36,110 bases of DNA from a virus (taxonomy: Duplodnaviria; Heunggongvirae; Uroviricota; Caudoviricetes): IMG/VR virus record IMGVR_UViG_2585427735_000020; one strand, 5' to 3'. The stretch's first letter is position 1, and every line of letters begins with the position of its first letter. The position numbers and the translations under genes were made by a program. Shown here piece by piece: positions 476 to 34,748 of this stretch. Below the pieces are notes generated by a model. That model was not told where the DNA came from. It saw nothing but the letters and a program-made list of their open reading frames with translations, and did no database searches.

Positions 476-503
476 TAAAAAATAAGCCCGTGTAAGGGAG
501 ATT
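476..503. repeat. attL core, 28-bp direct repeat TAAAAAATAAGCCCGTGTAAGGGAGATT
   Basis: Exact copy of 34577..34604; matches the P2 att core as I recall it; adjacent to int. Confidence 0.85.
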
Positions 504-582: not shown

Positions 583-1596
583 TTACTCTACTGTGGACAC
601 TGTGTGGACACTCTCGGCTTCAGTACCACCTCTTAGCGGATTAAGAGAAATGGCGTCCTGAAGGTACTCTGGCGCAAAATGAGCGTAAACCATAGTTTGC
701 TCAATCCGCGTGTGACCTAGTATCCGTTGTAGCGTGATAATACTTCCTCCATTAATCATGAAATGAGTGGCAAAGCTGTGCCTTAGTGCATGTGTGGCTT
801 GCCCCGTTGGCAAATCCGGTTTTATTGCTTTCATTGTTCGTCTGAAGCGAGGGTAATCAGCATCAGGGAATAAAAAACCTCGTTTGTTATCCGCGATCAT
901 TTTGGCAACAGCCTCTGAGATCGGGACGGTGCGTGGTTTGTTTGTTTTCGTTTTAACAAACGTGACGCGGTTATGGATGATATTTTCTGCTTTCAAACGA
1001 GCTGCTTCTCCCCAACGTGCTCCTGTACTCAGGCAAAGAATCGCAATCTTTTTGTTGTCGCCGTCAAGTGCTGCAAGCAGTAAGGCAATTTCTTCCTGTG
1101 TGAGATAGCCTGTTTCTGGTTTTTCCTCCTTAAGCCTCTTTGTCCCTCTGATAGGGTGCTCACCAAAGAATAACTCCGCTTCAATCAGGGCTGTAAACAT
1201 GCCGCTAATACATGTTAAATCACGATTGATACTCGAAGGTTTAATACCCTGACTTCTTCGGGTGGCGCAGTACTGGCTGATAAGGGATTTCGTGATTTGA
1301 AATGCGCATGGGTCATTCGTTATTTTTGTGAAGATTTCAATTTTTCCAAGATTAGATTTCCCATTCTCTTCGTGTTTACCCTTTAAATCCCACCAGATCT
1401 GTGTCAGTTCCGACAGACGTCGTTTGTCTGTTGGTTTTGATAGCCATTCTTTATTGTGGTGGTTGTACAACGTGTATTTTTCGAAAGCGACAGCTTCGCT
1501 TTTCTTATCAAACTTCCTACGGATGCGTTTTCCGTTACGTCCAGTAGGGCGGATGTCCACTTCATATCGACCATCATCGAGTTTTTTGATTGCCAT
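583..1596 (-). CDS. int: P2-type tyrosine integrase, 337 aa
   Basis: 337-aa ORF with C-terminal R...HxxR...Y-type catalytic region (ATHALRHSFATH, RILGHTRIEQTMVYAHF); adjacent to attL. Confidence 0.9.
   Translation of the reverse strand: MAIKKLDDGRYEVDIRPTGRNGKRIRRKFDKKSEAVAFEKYTLYNHHNKEWLSKPTDKRRLSELTQIWWDLKGKHEENGKSNLGKIEIFTKITNDPCAFQITKSLISQYCATRRSQGIKPSSINRDLTCISGMFTALIEAELFFGEHPIRGTKRLKEEKPETGYLTQEEIALLLAALDGDNKKIAILCLSTGARWGEAARLKAENIIHNRVTFVKTKTNKPRTVPISEAVAKMIADNKRGFLFPDADYPRFRRTMKAIKPDLPTGQATHALRHSFATHFMINGGSIITLQRILGHTRIEQTMVYAHFAPEYLQDAISLNPLRGGTEAESVHTVSTVE
592..611. promoter_or_regulatory. Tandem direct repeats TGTGGACAC x2 (candidate Int arm-type binding sites, P' arm)
   Basis: Two 9-nt copies at 592..600 and 603..611, 11 bp apart, overlapping the int 3' end; related TGTGG(T/A)C motifs occur next to attR at 34519..34537. 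Confidence 0.4.
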
Positions 1597-1711: not shown

Positions 1712-2011
1712 TTAACCAGTCTTTTGACCGGAGTGGGGCGACGTTGTTTCGTTTTGCCCAAAGTGTGCGAGAGCGGGCGCAATTTGCCCGGCTTCTGGAG
1801 CTACCTGATCAGTCATGAACCACAAAGTATATTTAGTAAATCTGGGATGTTGTAAGACCTTCATTATGGCTTCAACTCCAGCGTTTTTTGACCGGCTCTC
1901 ATAGCTCGAAAGTGAGCTGTAGGCTACACCAGTTAATTCACTGAATTCTTTACGGTTTAACCTTTCAGATTCACGGATTAACTTCAACTTCTCCGAAACG
2001 TCTATTGACAT
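1712..2011 (-). CDS. C: P2 C-type immunity repressor, 99 aa
   Basis: 99-aa ORF from the internal ATG at 2011 (MSIDVSEK...) with GGAG upstream; divergent to cox; C-terminal ...FTKYTLWFMTDQVAPEAGQIAPALAHFGQ typical of P2 C. Confidence 0.75.
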   Translation of the reverse strand: MSIDVSEKLKLIRESERLNRKEFSELTGVAYSSLSSYESRSKNAGVEAIMKVLQHPRFTKYTLWFMTDQVAPEAGQIAPALAHFGQNETTSPHSGQKTG

Positions 2012-2132: not shown

Positions 2133-2410
2133 ATGAATAGACAGCTTGTAAGCGTGACTGATGCCGTGCCTTATCAGGAGTTTGCAAAACTCATTGGTAA
2201 AACTCCAAGAGCTGTAAGGGGCATGATTGAGATGCGAAAGGGAAATTACCAGTTATTGAGATTACTGACCCTCAGTCAGTATCGGGGCGTGCTGGTGAAT
2301 ATTGGGTATACCTTCCGGCATGGAATAACGGACTAAAACTGGCTTATGAAAGCCGTCCTAAAGAGATTCGTGACGGCTGGTTGATGTGGTTAGGTCTCGG
2401 TGAACCACGT
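2133..2410 (+). pseudogene. cox: cox (excisionase / Pc repressor) with apparent -1 frameshift
   Basis: N-terminal 30 codons from the ATG at 2133 (MNRQLVSVTDAVPYQEFAKLIGKTPRAVRGMIE) run in frame 1; the Cox-like C-terminus (GKLPVIEITDPQ...LAYESRPKEIRDGWLMWLGLGEPR) continues in the -1 frame to stop 2411..2413 just before the next gene's SD; shift near 2235..2243 (GGG run). Confidence 0.55.
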
Positions 2411-2423
2411 TAAGGAGAACCGT

Positions 2424-2594
2424 ATGAATGAGCCTCGTTGTATTGCTCAGTTATTGCGTAACGAAAGCCCCAGGGCGATTGACTTCACCATCACCCACGG
2501 TAAGGGGCGTAAGGGAATCATTATCCGCACCAAAAAACAGAGTCCGTTAAAAAAGGCTCTGACCTTTCTGAAAAGCCGGAGGGTCTGGAAATGA
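2424..2594 (+). CDS. Small early protein (P2 orf78-like), 56 aa
   Basis: ATG 2424 preceded by AAGGAG at 2412..2417; basic small protein; position between cox and B. Confidence 0.5.
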   Translation: MNEPRCIAQLLRNESPRAIDFTITHGKGRKGIIIRTKKQSPLKKALTFLKSRRVWK

Positions 2595-3905: not shown

Positions 3906-4177
3906 GTATTCGTATTGAAATTGGCGAACGTTATGTCGTTACCAGTGACAGCTTTCAGTTTATTCTCCACGAGAAAAAGAGAGCGGAAAGCGGTAAAAAC
4001 GCCGGTCAGGAATGGCTGGCGGTGGTTGGTTATTACCCGAAATTAAGCCAGCTCGTTTCCGGCCTGATGCATCACGATATTCTGACCGGAAGCGCAAAGT
4101 CTTTTGCTGATTTAAACGCGCAGGTTGAGCAACTCAGCAAGCGTTGTTCAGAGGCTTTTGGCTCATATGACCGTTAA
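3902..4177 (+). CDS. Small early protein (P2 orf83-like), 91 aa
   Basis: Coupled ORF directly upstream of gene A. Confidence 0.5.
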   Translation: MSIRIEIGERYVVTSDSFQFILHEKKRAESGKNAGQEWLAVVGYYPKLSQLVSGLMHHDILTGSAKSFADLNAQVEQLSKRCSEAFGSYDR

Positions 4178-6269
4178 AGCCTCCGGGCATTTTGTCCCTC
4201 CGTCAGTATTTGCCGCAGGCACCGGTGAGACGTTTACCGGTGCTTATGCATGGAACGCGCCACGCGAGGCCGTCGGGCGCGAAAGACCCCTTACACGTGA
4301 CGAGATGCGTCAGGTGCAAGGTGTTTTATCCACGATTAACCGCCTGCCTTACTTTTTGCGCTCGCTGTTTACTTCACGCTATGACTACATCCGGCGCAAT
4401 AAAAGCCCGGTGCACGGGTTTTATTTCCTCACATCCACTTTTCAGCGTCGTTTATGGCCGCGCATTGAGCGTGTGAATCAGCGCCATGAAATGAACACCG
4501 ACGCGTCGTTGCTGTTTCTGGCAGAGCGTGACCACTATGCGCGCCTGCCGGGAATGAATGACAAGGAGCTGAAAAAGTTTGCCGCCCGTATCTCATCGCA
4601 GCTTTTCATGATGTATGAGGAACTCAGCGATGCCTGGGTGGATGCACATGGCGAAAAAGAATCGCTGTTTACGGATGAGGCGCAGGCTCACCTCTATGGT
4701 CATGTTGCTGGCGCTGCACGTGCTTTCAATATTTCCCCGCTTTACTGGAAAAAATACCGTAAAGGACAGATGACCACGAGGCAGGCATATTCTGCCATTG
4801 CCCGTCTGTTTAACGATGAGTGGTGGACTCATCAGCTCAAAGGCCAGCGTATGCGCTGGCATGAGGCGTTACTGATTGCTGTCGGGGAGGTGAATAAAGA
4901 CCGTTCTCCTTATGCCAGTAAACATGCCATTCGTGATGTGCGTGCACGCCGCCAGGCAAATCTGGAATTTCTTAAATCGTGTGACCTTGAAAACAGGGAA
5001 ACCGGCGAGCGCATCGACCTTATCAGTAAGGTGATGGGCAGTATTTCTAATCCTGAAATTCGCCGGATGGAGCTGATGAACACCATTGCCGGTATTGAGC
5101 GTTACGCCGCCGCAGAGGGTGATGTGGGGATGTTTATCACGCTTACCGCGCCGTCAAAGTATCACCCGACACGTCAGGTCGGAAAAGGCGAAAGTAAAAC
5201 CGTCCAGCTAAATCACGGCTGGAACGATGAGGCATTTAATCCAAAGGATGCGCAACGTTATCTCTGCCATATCTGGAGCCTGATGCGCACGGCATTCAAG
5301 GATAATGATTTACAGGTCTACGGTTTGCGTGTCGTCGAGCCACACCACGACGGAACGCCGCACTGGCATATGATGCTTTTTTGTAATCCACGCCAGCGTA
5401 ACCAGATTATCGAAATTATGCGTCGCTATGCGCTCAAAGAGGATGGCGACGAAAGAGGAGCCGCGCGAAACCGTTTTCAGGCAAAACACCTTAACCAGGG
5501 CGGTGCTGCGGGGTATATCGCGAAATACATCTCAAAAAACATCGATGGCTATGCACTGGATGGTCAGCTCGATAACGATACCGGCAGACCGCTGAAAGAC
5601 ACGGCTGCGGCTGTTACCGCATGGGCGTCAACGTGGCGCATCCCACAATTTAAAACGGTTGGTCTGCCGACAATGGGGGCTTACCGTGAACTACGAAAAT
5701 TGCCTCGCGGCGTCAGCATTGCTGATGAGTTTGACGAGCGCGTCGAGGCTGCACGCGCCGCCGCAGACAGTGGTGATTTTGCGTTGTATATCAGCGCGCA
5801 GGGTGGGGCAAATGTCCCGCGCGATTGTCAGACTGTCAGGGTCGCCCGTAGTCCGTCGGATGAAGTTAACGAGTACGAGGAAGAAGTCGAGAGAGTGGTC
5901 GGCATTTACGCGCCGCATCTCGGCGCGCGTCATATTCATATCACCAGAACGACGGACTGGCGCATTGTGCCGAAAGTTCCGGTCGTTGAGCCTTTGACTT
6001 TAAAAAGCGGCATCGCCGCGCCTCGGAGTCCTGTCAATAACTGTGGAAAGCTCACCGGTGGTGATACTTCGTTACCGGCTCCCACGCCTTCTGAGCACGC
6101 CGCAGCAGTGCTTAATCTGGTTGATGACGGTGTTATCGAATGGAATGACCCGGAGGTCGTGAGGGCGCTCAGAGGTGCACTAAAACACGGTCTAAGGACA
6201 CAAAATTATCTGCGAGACACAGCTCGCTCCCTAGATTCATGTTTACTCATGATTGGTGATTTTATATAA
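4167..6269 (+). CDS. A: Rolling-circle replication initiator gpA (HUH endonuclease)
   Basis: About 700 aa; HWHMMLF (HUH-like) and GYIAKYISK tyrosine motif; start taken as the ATG at 4167 (the track's TTG at 4125 is possible). Confidence 0.85.
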   Translation: MTVKASGHFVPPSVFAAGTGETFTGAYAWNAPREAVGRERPLTRDEMRQVQGVLSTINRLPYFLRSLFTSRYDYIRRNKSPVHGFYFLTSTFQRRLWPRIERVNQRHEMNTDASLLFLAERDHYARLPGMNDKELKKFAARISSQLFMMYEELSDAWVDAHGEKESLFTDEAQAHLYGHVAGAARAFNISPLYWKKYRKGQMTTRQAYSAIARLFNDEWWTHQLKGQRMRWHEALLIAVGEVNKDRSPYASKHAIRDVRARRQANLEFLKSCDLENRETGERIDLISKVMGSISNPEIRRMELMNTIAGIERYAAAEGDVGMFITLTAPSKYHPTRQVGKGESKTVQLNHGWNDEAFNPKDAQRYLCHIWSLMRTAFKDNDLQVYGLRVVEPHHDGTPHWHMMLFCNPRQRNQIIEIMRRYALKEDGDERGAARNRFQAKHLNQGGAAGYIAKYISKNIDGYALDGQLDNDTGRPLKDTAAAVTAWASTWRIPQFKTVGLPTMGAYRELRKLPRGVSIADEFDERVEAARAAADSGDFALYISAQGGANVPRDCQTVRVARSPSDEVNEYEEEVERVVGIYAPHLGARHIHITRTTDWRIVPKVPVVEPLTLKSGIAAPRSPVNNCGKLTGGDTSLPAPTPSEHAAAVLNLVDDGVIEWNDPEVVRALRGALKHGLRTQNYLRDTARSLDSCLLMIGDFI

Positions 6270-6451: not shown

Positions 6452-9400
6452 ATGTTTAATTCTTATACTGAATTTGTAAAGTCTTTGGTATTGGATATTC
6501 GGAAAGGTAAAGACGTTAGTTTTCTTCTGGGGTCAGCCGTGAGTTGCTCGCCGGAGGGGAATGGGGTACCGGGCGTTTCAGGGATGAATGATATTCTGCG
6601 GCAATATATGATTGATTTAGATATTTATGATGGCTTTGAAAGTAACATAATCGGTTTAAGTGAAACTGATAAATATCAAAAAAGTTTCGAATACCTTTTG
6701 AAGGTAGGTGATCAAGATGAAGTTAAAGAAATAATGGCTCTTGCAATGAATAATGCAAGGAGCGGCGACAAATGGTTAATTACTAAATCACTTGATGATT
6801 TTTCAAGGCTTATTTCAGAAACTAGCATTAAAGTAAAATGCATACTTACAACAAATTTTGATCCATTGATTGAAGAGGCATTGTTTAGAGTAAATAGAAA
6901 TTGTAATGTACATAATCTTATTGTAGATCAACCAATTGGTAGCGTTACCAGCTATTCAGGCGAATCCATTCCCGTAGTGCATTTACATGGAGTTTGGGAT
7001 GGAGATACTATGCATACTCAAACTCAGCTTTCTTCATTGAGGAAAAAAATTGAGTTGTCAATAAAAAATATATTGGATACAAGTAAATTATATGTTATTG
7101 GATATGCAGGTTGGGATGATGTTTTTCTACAGGCGTTAAGAAACATCGTCCATGAGTTTCAGCCAAGTTATAATGTTAGATGGGGTTTTTATAAAAACTC
7201 AATTGATGATGTGAGTAAAGAACATTCACGATTGATTGAAATTATTCAACCAGCGCTTGTTAATGCTCGTTTTCAAGGATATGTTGGGGTTGACTGTAAT
7301 ACATACTTTGAAGATGCTTTGGCTGAGATTAGTAAAAAAAAACAATTAAGTAAGTTTGTTGTAAAAAAAACTGGATTACAGCCGATAACAGAAAGCATAG
7401 TTATTTCGCTGAGACCCTATAACCTTTCAGTTGAGCCTGCGCATGATATAATTAGATTAGTAGAGCAAAAAAAAGCCACTGATTATTTAAATAATAACAA
7501 TCATTTTGAGCTTGTTTCTGGTTGGGGATACGGAAAAGCAGGTTTTTTATATTCTTTTATTCATGATGAATTTTATGATTTCACATGTTATTATAGTGAT
7601 GTCAATGGATTGACTGAATCTCGTGATATTGAAGTTAAAATAAAACAGGATATCGGTATCGATATTGCAACCTTCATATCTAATAATGGATTAGGAAAGC
7701 GGATTTTAATTCTTGATAACATAGCCAGACTTCCTCCATCAACTAAAGCTTTCTTTTCTGAGATTGCGAAATTATCATCAGATCTTAGTTCTGGTGTGAA
7801 AGTTATTTTTGTATCAGCGACATGTAACGGGATATGCTCTGGTATAGTGGAATTACAGCCTTTATCTTTAGATGATATAAAGGAGTATATTAAAGTTGGC
7901 ACTGATATTACTGAAATAAAAAGAGAGAAACTTGATAGGTTGTATGAAATAACAAATGGAATACCTTTAAAATTAGATAAGGTTAAAGAGTATTATGAGT
8001 TAATGTCATTTGATGAAGTCCTTGATGCAGGGAATATTGTTGTTTCGGCAGAGGGAACAAATACGGACATTCCACACTACATATCCAAGCAAATAAACGA
8101 GATTAGAAGTGATAATAGAAAACTATATTCATTACTATGCATTTTCTCTATGCTTGAATATGGGGAGAAATTGACAAATATTCGCTCTTATTATTCATCG
8201 TATGATTTTCATTTTGATGATTTCGCAAAACTAGAAAGATATGGTCTGATTTATACAATTACAAAGGATAATTATAAAATATTAAGGATATCACCAGTTG
8301 TTAGTGATTTTGTAAAGCAGGGTATGGATCCTAACCAACGGTATGAACTTGTAAAAAAATCCCTAGGACTTTGTATCGGTAGCGATTGGATGTCAGGGAA
8401 AGTGAGAGTCTCTCCTACAGTGAAGATGATGCTTGAAAGCACGGAGTTTTATCCTGGAAATGTCCATTCAGCTATTAGTTCATACTTTTCATTAATAGAT
8501 ATTAATAATTATGATCGAGAAGTCAAATCATTAATACATGTTTCTATAGGATATTGCATCTTTTTAAAGAGTGCATGTTACTATAAAGAACTCGTCGCAT
8601 TTTCTCGGATGCTTTATTCTAATATTTCTCATTTGGATATTCTTGATAAATTTAGGGCTGCGTATTTTTTGGCTACAAGTTTAAGAATGATTGATGAGGT
8701 TGAACAAAGTGTTGAATTTATTGAGCCTTTAAGTGATGAGTTCGAGGCAAAAGAGTTTTGTCAAAAGGAATATTATTTTAAAATGCTTGATAATATTATG
8801 ATGGCATGCTCTGAATATAATGATGAAAAAGCACGAAAATACGCAATAAAATTAAAAAAGATAGCTCCAAAGTCTTCTAGTTATTATATCAATGCTGAAG
8901 TTCATTTGGCTGACGAATTGTCTCATGGTAAAAGGGTTAATAAGCTTATTTCTCTCGAGAAAAAGTCCCGAGCTGCTGGGTATAACACGCTGGCTAATAA
9001 TATTAGCATTAAACTTCATTATTTGTTTTCTGGTTCATCTTTCAAATATATTGATAATGCCATAAAAAATGAAGGGGGAGTGTATACTAAGGCCAGGGCG
9101 TTACTTGTTAAGTATGAAGAGTTGGTACGTTGCGGAGAGTTTGAAAAAATTGATGCGGAGGGGGTGAGGGAATTAAAGGCCGTTTATGATTATTTGTTCT
9201 TGCAGCGATTAGATGAGCTTTTTAACAGATGTACCGATGTGTTATGGCAGCTTATGAAAGCGTATCGGGATGTTAATGGCTTATACTACTTATTTAAGCG
9301 TGGTTCTGTAATTTGGCGTGTAACCTCATCTTATGATAAAGAGTTAGAATATGCTAAGGAGTTGAATGAGCAACAGTTTGATATCAGTGGAGGAGGTGAT

Positions 9401-9487
9401 GATATGAAATATTTATCAATCAGACTGAGTTTTTTGGCACTAAAGGTGGAGCGAGATAAGTGTCTGATTGATGCTCCAACATTGTAA
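6452..9487 (+). CDS. Cargo protein, 1011 aa: N-terminal SIR2-like domain + STAND-like NTPase core + C-terminal helical repeats (SIR2-STAND/Avs5-like or DSR-like candidate defence protein)
   Basis: ATG 6452 with GAAAGGGA SD; SIR2 motifs FLLGSAVS...GVPG, TTNFD (6848..6862), HLHG (6980..6991), IGYAGWDD; then GWGYGKAG (7520..7543), ILILDN (about 7700..7720), GIPLKL (7958..7975); AT-rich, replaces tin/old between A and cos. Confidence 0.6.
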   Translation: MFNSYTEFVKSLVLDIRKGKDVSFLLGSAVSCSPEGNGVPGVSGMNDILRQYMIDLDIYDGFESNIIGLSETDKYQKSFEYLLKVGDQDEVKEIMALAMNNARSGDKWLITKSLDDFSRLISETSIKVKCILTTNFDPLIEEALFRVNRNCNVHNLIVDQPIGSVTSYSGESIPVVHLHGVWDGDTMHTQTQLSSLRKKIELSIKNILDTSKLYVIGYAGWDDVFLQALRNIVHEFQPSYNVRWGFYKNSIDDVSKEHSRLIEIIQPALVNARFQGYVGVDCNTYFEDALAEISKKKQLSKFVVKKTGLQPITESIVISLRPYNLSVEPAHDIIRLVEQKKATDYLNNNNHFELVSGWGYGKAGFLYSFIHDEFYDFTCYYSDVNGLTESRDIEVKIKQDIGIDIATFISNNGLGKRILILDNIARLPPSTKAFFSEIAKLSSDLSSGVKVIFVSATCNGICSGIVELQPLSLDDIKEYIKVGTDITEIKREKLDRLYEITNGIPLKLDKVKEYYELMSFDEVLDAGNIVVSAEGTNTDIPHYISKQINEIRSDNRKLYSLLCIFSMLEYGEKLTNIRSYYSSYDFHFDDFAKLERYGLIYTITKDNYKILRISPVVSDFVKQGMDPNQRYELVKKSLGLCIGSDWMSGKVRVSPTVKMMLESTEFYPGNVHSAISSYFSLIDINNYDREVKSLIHVSIGYCIFLKSACYYKELVAFSRMLYSNISHLDILDKFRAAYFLATSLRMIDEVEQSVEFIEPLSDEFEAKEFCQKEYYFKMLDNIMMACSEYNDEKARKYAIKLKKIAPKSSSYYINAEVHLADELSHGKRVNKLISLEKKSRAAGYNTLANNISIKLHYLFSGSSFKYIDNAIKNEGGVYTKARALLVKYEELVRCGEFEKIDAEGVRELKAVYDYLFLQRLDELFNRCTDVLWQLMKAYRDVNGLYYLFKRGSVIWRVTSSYDKELEYAKELNEQQFDISGGGDDMKYLSIRLSFLALKVERDKCLIDAPTL

Positions 9488-18984: not shown

Positions 18985-19050
18985 TTGTGCCATTCCCGAC
19001 CCCTCATCGTCACATTGCCGCCGGTATGACCCGGCGGCATCCTTCCCGTT

Positions 19051-20034: not shown

Positions 20035-20943
20035 ATGCCGATTATCGACCTGAACCAGCTACCTGCACCGGATGTGGTCGAGGAGCTGGACTTTGAAACC
20101 ATTCTTGCCGAACGCAAGGCGACACTGATTTCCCTTTACCCGGAAGACCAGCAGGAGGCGGTCGCCCGTACCCTGACGCTGGAATCCGAGCCTCTCGTCA
20201 AACTGCTGGAGGAAAATGCGTATCGTGAGCTTCTCTGGCGTCAGCGTGTGAATGAGGCCGCACGGGCGGTGATGCTGGCCTGTGCCGCGGGTAATGACCT
20301 TGATGTGATTGGTGCCAATTACAACACCACGCGTCTGACTATCACCCCGGCAGATGATTCGACCATCCCGCCGACACCGGCAGTGATGGAATCTGACACC
20401 GATTATCGTCTGCGTATTCAGCAGGCGTTTGAAGGTTTAAGCGTCGCCGGGTCGGTGGGTGCCTATCAGTATCATGGCCGCAGTGCCGACGGGCGTGTCG
20501 CGGATATCTCTGTCACCAGTCCGTCTCCGGCCTGCGTCACTATCTCTGTGCTGTCACGTGAAAATAACGGCGTCGCATCCGAAGACCTGCTGGCTGTGGT
20601 GCGTAACGCCCTTAATGGCGAGGACGTCAGGCCGGTGGCCGACCGCGTGACCGTGCAGTCTGCCGCCATCGTTGAATACCAGATAAACGCCACGCTTTAC
20701 CTTTACCCTGGTCCCGAAAGCGAACCCATCCGCGCTGCTGCCGTGAAAAAGCTGGAAGCGTATATCACGGCACAGCACCGGCTGGGGCGCGACATCCGTC
20801 TGTCTGCCATTTATGCCGCTTTGCATGTGGAAGGTGTGCAGCGTGTCGAACTGGCTGCACCACTGGCCGACATCGTGCTCAACAGTACGCAGGCGTCTTT
20901 CTGTACCGAATACCGCGTCGTGACCGGAGGCTCGGATGAGTGA
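20035..20943 (+). CDS. J: Baseplate protein gpJ, 302 aa
   Basis: 302 aa; P2 order. Confidence 0.85.
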   Translation: MPIIDLNQLPAPDVVEELDFETILAERKATLISLYPEDQQEAVARTLTLESEPLVKLLEENAYRELLWRQRVNEAARAVMLACAAGNDLDVIGANYNTTRLTITPADDSTIPPTPAVMESDTDYRLRIQQAFEGLSVAGSVGAYQYHGRSADGRVADISVTSPSPACVTISVLSRENNGVASEDLLAVVRNALNGEDVRPVADRVTVQSAAIVEYQINATLYLYPGPESEPIRAAAVKKLEAYITAQHRLGRDIRLSAIYAALHVEGVQRVELAAPLADIVLNSTQASFCTEYRVVTGGSDE

Positions 20944-21465
20944 TTCGCGACTGCTGCCGACCGGCTCATCACCGCTGAGGTCGCCGCCGCAAAAGCCTGT
21001 GCGGAAATTGAAAAAACGCCGGTCAGTATTCGTGAGCAGTGGAACCCGGACACCTGTCCGGCAAATCTGCTGCCGTGGCTGGCGTGGGCGTTTTCGGTCG
21101 ACAGGTGGGATGAAAAGTGGCCGGAAGCGACAAAACGCGCCGTTATCCGCGATGCGTATTTCATCCACTGTCATAAAGGCACAATAGGTGCAATCCGGCG
21201 TGTGGTGGAGCCGCTCGGCTATCTCATCAACGTGACGGAGTGGTGGGAAAACAGTGACCCGCCCGGCACCTTCCGGCTTGATATTGGTGTACTGGAAAGC
21301 GGCATCACAGAGGCAATGTATCAGGAAATGGAACGGCTGATTGCTGATGCCAAACCTGCAAGCCGCCACCTTATTGGCCTGAACATTACCCGGGACATTC
21401 CCGGCTACCTGTTCGCCGGTGGTGTGGCTTACGACGGCGATGTAATTACGGTTTACCCCGGATAA
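20936..21465 (+). pseudogene. I: Baseplate gene I with apparent -1 frameshift near the 5' end
   Basis: ATG 20936 overlaps the J stop, but the native-looking product (...EVAAAKACAEIEKTPVSIREQWNPDTCPANLLPWLAWAFSVDRWDE...VITVYPG) is in the -1 frame from about 20977 to stop 21465; the ATG frame gives an Arg-rich junk ORF; total span equals the P2 gpI length. Confidence 0.6.
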
Positions 21466-24800: not shown

Positions 24801-25736
24801 GTGGTTACATATAATTCAATGTTGTTACCCCCCCCTAAATCTTGGGACGAATTTGAGGATATGTGCAAAAGTTCATTCCAACTGCGATGGTCCAATCCTA
24901 ATCTGAACAGACATGGACGGTCAGGGCAGCGGCAGGATGGAGTTGATGTATATGGTGATGACTCTCTTGGGCGTTTCGTTGGAATTCAGTGTAAAAATAC
25001 AGTATCAGGAATCAGTACGGCGACAATCGATGATGAATTACTCAAGGCTGAAAAATTTCGCCCAAAAATTACGGTTCTTTACATCGCTACGACAGCGCCC
25101 AGGGATGTTAGCATTCAGCGCTATGTAAGAACACTCAATGATGCCAGACAATTAAAAGGCCTGTTTCCTGTCGATGTGGTTTTCTGGGAGGATATTAGCT
25201 TTGATTTAAGCAAAGACCCAGCTGTACTCAAAATGTACTACCCGCAAATGTTCGAACGACACCAACCGACGAGGGAAGAATTTTTGCGCAAGAGAGATAT
25301 CTCAAATTTGTCGACATTGTTGAATGTTATTGATTTTCATTCAACAATAGACCATTTGCAGTGGGGCGCAAAATACATTCATTCATTAATTATTGAAGAA
25401 TACGATAATATTTTGAACATTTTAAACTCACCTGTTTTTCAACTGAATGATACAGCTTTAAAGAATGTTACAATTGATTTTGCAACGGCCTGGCGTGATC
25501 TAATTATCTTGTTTAGAAAAGCTCCATATAATTATTCAGCACCAAATGATACTTTTAGTTTTATAAATCCCGGTGACCACTGTCGAAATCAGGAGGAAAG
25601 CGATTTATACGACGAAATCACGCATAGCATGAGTAATCTCAAAGATAAAATTAGTACTTTTTGTGACTTTATAAATAATCACTACCATGAAATAAACTTA
25701 ACCGAAACGAGCGCGCAAGCCAGGAAATATTATTAA
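24801..25736 (+). CDS. Cargo protein, 311 aa: Mrr-type PD-(D/E)xK restriction-endonuclease-like N-terminal domain + uncharacterised C-terminal domain
   Basis: GTG start 7 nt after AAAGGA; FEDM...RHGRSGQRQDGVDVYGDD...GRFVGIQCKNT (nt about 24912..24998) resembles the Mrr catalytic core (D...D...QxK); AT-rich, between G and FI. Confidence 0.55.
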   Translation: MVTYNSMLLPPPKSWDEFEDMCKSSFQLRWSNPNLNRHGRSGQRQDGVDVYGDDSLGRFVGIQCKNTVSGISTATIDDELLKAEKFRPKITVLYIATTAPRDVSIQRYVRTLNDARQLKGLFPVDVVFWEDISFDLSKDPAVLKMYYPQMFERHQPTREEFLRKRDISNLSTLLNVIDFHSTIDHLQWGAKYIHSLIIEEYDNILNILNSPVFQLNDTALKNVTIDFATAWRDLIILFRKAPYNYSAPNDTFSFINPGDHCRNQEESDLYDEITHSMSNLKDKISTFCDFINNHYHEINLTETSAQARKYY

Positions 25737-26518: not shown

Positions 26519-27385
26519 ATGGTCCGTTTTAACTTACTAGAAAATGCGTTGGATTCAGTGGAAACCGGGCTGGACTACTTTAACAAAGCGCTAGAAGGGC
26601 ATGATCGACGTGACTACAAACAGTGCCTGCTTAACCTCTTTCAGGCCGCTGAGCTATTGTTGAAGGCCGTAGTTTCGCGCAATGGGTCTGGAGCGATTTT
26701 TAATCCAGCATCGCTTCAAGAAAAATGTGTGGATCCGGCGCATCCAACCGAGTCAGAATTACACCAGTGTAAATCTGTCAACGTCAACCAGCTTTGTAAG
26801 CTGTTAAAGACATATTACCCAGCCGAATTTTCTGAATCTGCATTACAAATGATGAAAACGGTGGGTCAGTTGCGTAATAACCTTCAGCATTTTGCCCTTG
26901 AGGTTCGTCCGCAAGAACTGGCAATGCAACTGAGTGAACTGTACCAACAAATTTTTCGTCCCGCATTCGTCATAATTCAGTCAGATGAGACCGAAAATTC
27001 ATGGAACTCTGATTTACGTCAAGACATCATCGCTCTTGAGCAACAATTCCTTGATATAACTGTTAACCAGGAATACACCCTTGCACTTTGTCCCGTTTGT
27101 GAGAGTTTTTCACATTTTATCCTTTACCAAGGTGAAAGCTTTCCGGCACGGACTCACTGTATCTGTTGTGGTTTCAGCCTGAATAATCTGCAAACTTGGG
27201 ATTTTCAGGAATGTCCTGAATGTAGTGTCCCATCCGTAATTTATTTACCGGAACAAAGGGTCGGTGTCTGTCTCTGGTATAAATGTGAATACAGCAAGAT
27301 GGATGGTTTTGTTCCTATGGAGCCTTGTGAATGTGGTGCATTCCGGATGGAAGGTCATTGCAGTAACTGCGATCTTGAGGAATAG
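26519..27385 (+). CDS. Cargo protein, 288 aa: HEPN-like helical N-terminal domain (Rx4H) + C-terminal multi zinc-ribbon domain
   Basis: ATG 26519 after a G-rich SD; LRNNLQH at 26873..26890; CPVC, CICC, CPEC, Cx4C, CEC, CSNC pairs across 27089..27370. Confidence 0.55.
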   Translation: MVRFNLLENALDSVETGLDYFNKALEGHDRRDYKQCLLNLFQAAELLLKAVVSRNGSGAIFNPASLQEKCVDPAHPTESELHQCKSVNVNQLCKLLKTYYPAEFSESALQMMKTVGQLRNNLQHFALEVRPQELAMQLSELYQQIFRPAFVIIQSDETENSWNSDLRQDIIALEQQFLDITVNQEYTLALCPVCESFSHFILYQGESFPARTHCICCGFSLNNLQTWDFQECPECSVPSVIYLPEQRVGVCLWYKCEYSKMDGFVPMEPCECGAFRMEGHCSNCDLEE

Positions 27386-34576: not shown

Positions 34577-34604
34577 TAAAAAATAAGCCCGTGTAAGGGA
34601 GATT
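34577..34604. repeat. attR core, 28-bp direct repeat identical to attL
   Basis: Exact copy of 476..503; forms the 3' terminator end of the cyaR sRNA. Confidence 0.85.
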
Positions 34605-34664
34605 ACACAGGCTAAGGAGGTGGTTCCTGGTACAGCTAGCATTTTATGGGTTATGTTTTTCAGC
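34578..34664 (-). ncRNA. cyaR: CyaR (RyeE) Hfq-dependent small RNA
   Basis: Minus-strand sequence GCTGAAAAACATAACCCATAAAATGCTAGCTGTACCAGGAACCACCTCCTTAGCCTGTGTAATCTCCCTTACACGGGCTTATTTTTT matches CyaR as I recall it; 3' end overlaps the att core. Confidence 0.6.
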
Positions 34665-34748
34665 GAAACGGATGATAACCTTAATAAATGCAGCTGTATG
34701 TGATCGGTTTCTAAGAATTTTCCATCCGGGAAAAATAATCGAAATTAA

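Follow-up and report, generated by a model that had tools for sequence, protein, structure and literature searches.

Organization of the Prophage and Its Insertion Site

The window analyzed here, a 36,110-nt stretch of viral DNA to which all positions refer, is 100% identical to contig JOQC01000013.1 of NCBI assembly GCA_000713905.1, a draft from 2014, and on the strength of this match that contig is most likely its origin. The ORF listing, together with tblastn searches using all 42 P2 proteins, identified a P2-like prophage gene set in the window. The early side comprises int, C, cox, orf78, B, orf80-83 and A, and the late side has the full Q-to-D set followed by ogr. With the exception of cox, I and A, the late and early P2 homologues aligned over their full length. 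Counterparts of P2 orf30, fun(Z), tin and old were not found in the window. The host genes flanking the prophage are those of E. coli, with yegR on the left and cyaR/trhP on the right.

The integrase gene (583–1596, minus strand) is intact and encodes a 337-residue protein 99.4% identical to P2 Int. The attL core (476–503, plus strand) is 28 nt long and the same as the attR core (34577–34604, plus strand), which overlaps the 3' end of the cyaR sRNA gene. The P' arm beside the attL core, which holds Cox and Int sites, is 99.3% identical to P2 attP, and the P arm at attR is 99.2% identical to P2. The CyaR/RyeE sRNA gene itself was located at 34581–34666 on the minus strand (Rfam RF00112, 100.7 bits), overlapping the attR core; the 3' end of cyaR is the integration site, and the prophage regenerates cyaR.

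Between int and the early genes lies the immunity switch. The gene for immunity repressor C (1712–2011, minus strand; 99 residues, HTH_3) is intact, and cox, divergent from C and with int and att adjoining, opens the early operon. This is the position held by the gene for P2 Cox (PDB 4LHF, PF10743), which is likewise the first gene of its early operon, divergent from C and next to int/attP. The next early-operon gene, orf78 (2424–2594, plus strand), is intact and its product is 100% identical to P2 Orf78. Relatedness to P2 is uneven across this region. Int and att are 99% identical to P2 and residues 34–91 of Cox are 95% identical, whereas C is only 65% identical and the N-terminal 33 residues of Cox belong with C to another immunity class (61% identity over the first 36 residues of Cox). 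The distance of C and the Cox N-terminus from P2 indicates that in this prophage a P2 integration module is joined to an immunity region of a non-P2 class.

Upstream of cox, at 2075–2120, there are direct repeats with a 10-bp period, in which AGCCATTAG occurs at 2089 and again at 2099, flanked by related units on both sides. These repeats are at the equivalent of the P2 Pc region and are probably candidate Cox-binding boxes of this immunity class. A palindrome, GGCTTATGAAAGCC, is present inside cox at 2341–2354, within codons for ...LAYES.... A scan of the cox region at the Rfam gathering threshold found no RNA family.

The cox Reading Frame Is Split

The cox ORF of the window (2133–2336, plus strand) opens with ATG at 2133, ends with TAA at 2334–2336 and encodes 67 residues. 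Residues 1–33 of this product are native Cox, corresponding to beta1-alpha1-turn-alpha2 of the winged HTH, and the other 34 are translated out of frame. The remainder of native Cox, K34 to R91, is encoded in a different frame at 2231–2413 on the plus strand. The frame from 2135 translates as ...DAKGKLPVIEITDPQSVSGRAGEYWVYLPAWNNGLKLAYESRPKEIRDGWLMWLGLGEPR*, and its TAA stop at 2411–2413 is followed directly by the orf78 Shine-Dalgarno sequence GGAGAA (2414–2419), with the orf78 ATG at 2424. In tblastn searches, P2 Cox likewise aligned in two frames, with residues 1–36 at 2133–2240 and residues 34–91 at 2237–2410. The Pfam Phage_Cox profile (PF10743) matched the first frame at profile positions 3–35 with 28.3 bits (cut-off 27.5) and the second frame at positions 34–87 with 103 bits, compared to 143.6 bits for the intact protein of a relative.

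Together, these data bear out the first-pass annotation in its reading that both Cox termini are recognizable in different frames, that the 3' frame ends where the orf78 Shine-Dalgarno sequence begins, and that the gene is out of frame with a product that should be inactive. A single ORF of about 88–94 residues, with a winged HTH and C-terminal oligomerization helices, is not present, as the frame breaks after codon 33. Re-initiation of translation on the C-terminal part was considered and ruled out because the earliest start codons of that frame are TTG at 2381 and ATG at 2384, and without a start codon before 2381 the C-terminal part would not be translated on its own. Based on its sequence, the cox gene of the window is a pseudogene of the Phage_Cox family rather than a functional member.

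The Frame Break Results from a Five-Nucleotide Insertion

Comparison with intact P2-like cox genes confirmed the frame break and located its cause. The lesion is a 5-nt insertion, GATGC, at 2231–2235 on the plus strand (equally described as ATGCG at 2232–2236). Intact relatives read ATTGA|GAAAGGGAAATT (ATTGA|GAAAGGG) at this site and the window reads ATTGA-GATGC-GAAAGGGAAATT; the intact junction, lacking GATGC, is ATTGAGAAAGGG. Both phage vB_EcoM-720R8 (98.5% identical) and P2 show a 5-column gap at this point when aligned with the window. When 2231–2235 were removed in silico, the exact 91-residue Cox of the closely related prophage loci L019–L024 was recovered.

The intact class, which includes vB_EcoM-720R8 (ON470606), protein cluster P0001 and L019–L024, is 98.5–99.9% identical to the window in nucleotide sequence and occupies the same yegR/cyaR site. 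Its members differ from the window in lacking GATGC, in having G at 2027 and in encoding Cox as a single ORF of 91 residues. L019–L024 also have the same SIR2 cargo as the window, and all the prophages with the identical 1011-residue SIR2 cargo at the same chromosomal site encode a 91-residue Cox. Over 19.5 kb, these SIR2-cargo relatives differ from the window by 5–9 SNPs and this indel. The closest, L021, differs by five SNPs and the cox indel over 19,487 nt.

Broader searches gave a consistent result. The switch region was present over at least 80% of a 601-nt query in 345 of 5426 complete E. coli genomes, and every top match in these genomes was 596 nt long versus the 601-nt query. A 61-nt query centred on the site matched 348 records at 91.8%, which equates to the 5-nt gap, and none of the records searched had a gap-free full-length match to it. 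The intact junction was found in 26 metagenome contigs; the inserted junction was found neither in the metagenome collection nor in the GTDB species representatives. As the insertion is lacking in all relatives, the nearest of which are only a few SNPs away, it is recent and private to the lineage of the window.

The insertion is not a tandem duplication and does not fall within a homopolymer. A target-site duplication or the footprint of an excised IS was rejected because GATGC duplicates neither flank (ATTGA or GAAAG). An IS5-type origin was also rejected, since the window sequence is not consistent with the AAAG duplication made by the IS5 in the cox gene of CP189662.1. A scar left at the junction between the mosaic immunity region and P2-like DNA was ruled out on two counts: the divergence from P2 DNA runs on to ~2296, past the lesion, and relatives of the same class do not have the insertion.

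A second difference from the relatives lies in the C-cox spacer, where a G to A substitution at 2027 (plus strand) changes CGTAAT to CATAAT. This position is one base upstream of that homologous to the -10 of P2 Pe. The substitution is shared with the Logan contig that carries the cox insertion (below), and none of the 344 complete genomes with the switch region has it. Promoter scans around it called no promoter for either allele, and a direct-repeat search identified no operator containing 2027. G2027A may be neutral, or it may have altered a promoter or operator in connection with the loss of cox.

Assessment of Alternative Explanations

The first-pass annotation had attributed the frame break to one G missing from the GGG run at 2240–2242, with an ancestral Cox of 93 residues, and had raised the possibility of a homopolymer sequencing error. 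Adding a G to the run does open a 93-residue frame, so that much of the proposal held. However, the wild-type protein has 91 residues, the GGG run is unchanged in all intact relatives, which have a 91-residue Cox and differ from the window at 2231–2235, and none of the natural Cox proteins aligned has the Met-Arg of the 93-residue version. We therefore rejected the loss of a single G, the run being wild-type in homologues, and regard it as scarcely credible as the origin of this allele; the lesion is a non-repetitive 5-nt insertion, not a single-nucleotide change in a homopolymer.

That the insertion itself might be a sequencing or assembly error, with cox intact in the real genome, we consider very improbable. 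Its source is a draft from 2014, and the substitutions at 1365, 10439 and 12538, which are absent from both the relatives and a second assembly, could hint at consensus errors. However, that second assembly, Logan contig SRR1186690_59, was assembled independently from raw reads and encodes the exact 67-residue product; in its gapless alignment with the window, 7335 of 7336 nt agree. A homopolymer error would be seen as a 1–2-nt indel within a run that is absent from independent data, and neither feature applies here. The presence of the same non-repetitive 5-nt insertion in two assemblies excludes an error of this type and sets aside the concern over sequencing error, and an insertion of 5 nt outside a homopolymer corresponds to no known systematic error type. 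The nearby private change G2027A was also found in both assemblies. SRR1186690 may be a read set of the same isolate; the second assembly would then validate the reads without representing a second strain.

The substitutions private to the window, relative to all its close relatives, are at 1365, 10439 and 12538, and also at 19001, 22402 and 22737. The first three are all nonsynonymous (Int H78N, Q T134P and P F25V), and the Logan assembly of SRR1186690 does not have Int N78, Q P134 or P V25. The lack of these three SNPs indicates that the Logan contig derives from a sister isolate or represents a cleaner assembly of the same isolate. Such private substitutions may have accumulated because selection is relaxed in a locked prophage, or they may be consensus errors of the 2014 draft assembly.

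A different kind of alternative is that the insertion is real but leaky, with -1 frameshifting at 2234–2240 producing a full-length Cox carrying two additional residues, so that the activity would be attenuated and not absent. The zero frame at the lesion reads GAG ATG CGA AAG GGA and contains the heptamer G_CGA_AAG (2234–2240, plus strand), which was partly created by the insertion. This heptamer is exactly the -1 frameshift site of the IS1222 transposase, and A_CGA_AAG is a site of shifting in the cdd gene of B. subtilis (PMC5009743). No tetramer is more prone to shifting in E. coli than A_AAG (PMC4066793). After a -1 slip on AAG, ribosomes would continue with GGG AAA TTA CCA and produce a 93-residue Cox with Met-Arg inserted after E33, with the predicted junction peptide ...GMIEMRK-GKLPVIEITDPQSVSGR, and this product has a full-length Phage_Cox match of 137 bits. 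As in IS1222, the motif is in the zero frame and a useful ORF continues in the -1 frame. The RNA could fold into a stem that starts 5 nt downstream of the site, and a putative SD-like element, UAAGGGG, is present at 2215–2221, 15 nt upstream of the heptamer. In addition, non-programmed -1 suppression of frameshift mutations of up to ~1–10% has been reported in E. coli (PMC10861913). As the zero-frame G_CGA_AAG is a documented -1 site, some full-length Cox with the added Met-Arg might be made.

Despite these features, we consider a leaky allele unlikely. Shift-prone tetramers without a strong stimulator barely exceed background (0.147% versus 0.112%, PMC4066793), and the fold downstream of the site is no better than that of shuffled sequence (z = -0.94). 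The site differs from those of IS1222 and cdd in being a recent mutation with no conservation and no conserved stimulatory element demonstrated: among the other genomes, metagenome contigs and protein clusters there was no conserved split-ORF arrangement, the relatives having a single ORF, and an arrangement unique to one lineage gives no sign of selection. The C of CGA would be expected by chance in 1/4 of random insertions. Furthermore, the Met-Arg would fall within the segment M31-I32-x-K-x-K-L-P, where an alignment of 19 diverse Cox homologues shows zero indels and where replacement of some residues by alanine abolishes activity (PMC3936717). Restored-frame Cox with Met-Arg would probably be present at trace levels and be non-functional. 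We regard the resemblance to IS1222 as a lead, and not as evidence of programmed frameshifting. A more elaborate version, in which the insertion acts as a “savior indel”, with cox expressed at ~0.1% to a few per cent as Cox with Met-Arg and the P2 switch turned down but not lost, appears still less likely than leakiness as such. If true, this effect and the linked G2027A would jointly represent a re-tuned prophage, nearly locked but still rescuable.

Weighing these alternatives, we consider it highly probable that the window contains a recent cox pseudogene, formed by insertion of GATGC after codon 33, in an ordinary P2-like prophage that is decaying and immobilized.

Other Disrupted cox Alleles in E. 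coli P2-Like Prophages

Protein searches identified further disrupted cox alleles on long contigs. Fusions after ...LKLAY were found in protein clusters P0056, P0057, P0059 and P0118, and frameshift alleles in P0045 and P0063. The alleles P0056, P0057, P0059, P0063 and P0118 break at or beside the palindrome at 2341–2354, which suggests that the fusion and truncation alleles are deletions ending at this palindrome. In CP189662.1 (L063, 2856–4054), cox is interrupted by IS5, with duplication of AAAG at the equivalent of window positions 2237–2240. In two further loci, L064 and L065, a deletion of ~794 bp removes int', C and cox codons 1–32/33, with the junction GAT|AAAGG around 4046; DBKZNE010000010.1 and ABZJWB010000007.1 are int'-C-cox' deletion prophages.

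These other broken-cox E. coli P2-like prophages occupy the same chromosomal site as that of the window but arose by independent mechanisms, and none has the 5-nt insertion. The existence of independently broken cox genes in other strains indicates that the allele of the window is an instance of routine prophage decay. The insertion in the window, the IS5 insertion and the junction of the ~794-bp deletion lie within a few bases of one another, a cluster of three lesions that could represent a hotspot or a coincidence.

A Second Lesion and the Cargo Genes

The baseplate gene I (20936–21465, plus strand) has a 1-nt deletion at ~20975. It has lost one T, with P2 and the relatives reading CCGCTTGAGG and the window CCGCTGAGG, and in the gene I region each of the closest complete E. 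coli genomes has one base more than the window. Among the loci fetched, the deletion is shared only by GCA_012475395.1 (L017). Owing to this frameshift the prophage is defective in any case, and cox is not its sole defect.

Replication gene A (4167–6269) aligns to P2 A over residues 1–680 only. The last 81 residues of A are replaced at the junction with a gene for a 1011-residue SIR2-domain protein (6452–9487), which occupies the position of P2 orf91, tin and old. The resulting 700-residue A is common to the whole SIR2-cargo lineage and was called a pseudogene by PGAP in strain STEC1588. Two cargo ORFs are located at the P2 Z/fun position. That at 24801–25736 encodes 311 residues with no family match, and that at 26519–27385 encodes 288 residues, the N-terminus of which matches the PADLOC candidate PDC-S64.

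Expected Consequences of the Loss of Cox

The intact allele matches P2 Cox (PDB 4LHF) over its full length with an E value of 6e-51. The fold of P2 Cox is beta1-alpha1-turn-alpha2-beta2-loop-beta3-alpha3-alpha4 (Berntsson et al., PMC3936717). The product encoded in the window lacks the wing (beta2-loop-beta3) and alpha3-alpha4, the Cox filament builders. In P2, deletion of the last 20 residues, R51A in the wing, W81A or W84A each abolished complementation of a cox3 prophage, and cox2, cox3 and cox4 prophages released zero phage (PMC3936717). With only residues 1–33 of Cox kept, a null allele is a straightforward inference.

With Int, C and the att sites at both ends intact, the prophage is expected from P2 genetics to be unable to excise. 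Without Cox, Int would not be steered to excision, and Pc would be unrepressed, such that C would still be made and the prophage would be held in the lysogenic state, fixed in the chromosome. A resident P4-type satellite would also go unactivated through Cox. A prophage without a working cox is probably stuck in the chromosome, and a predicted loss of both excision and the lytic switch matches the published cox-defective P2 prophages (PMC3936717). The expected phenotype is that of the classical cox2, cox3 and cox4 alleles, that is, defective excision and no spontaneous phage; however, those alleles are missense mutations (M42T, G22E and E54K), whereas the allele in the window is a natural 5-bp insertion causing truncation after residue 33. 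Intact P2 prophages also excise only rarely, and the practical difference may consequently be small.

These findings correct the annotation of the locus: a 5-bp insertion has made cox a genuine pseudogene, and the prophage should be scored as defective and immobilized. In such a prophage the defence-type cargo, that is, SIR2 and the genes at the Z/fun position, would be inherited vertically as chromosomal genes. To a gene already well known, the window adds a new null allele of natural origin, and current understanding stands unchallenged. The repeated and independent knock-out of cox in the P2-like prophages of this locus, by IS5, deletions and frameshifts, fits the known domestication and decay of prophages.
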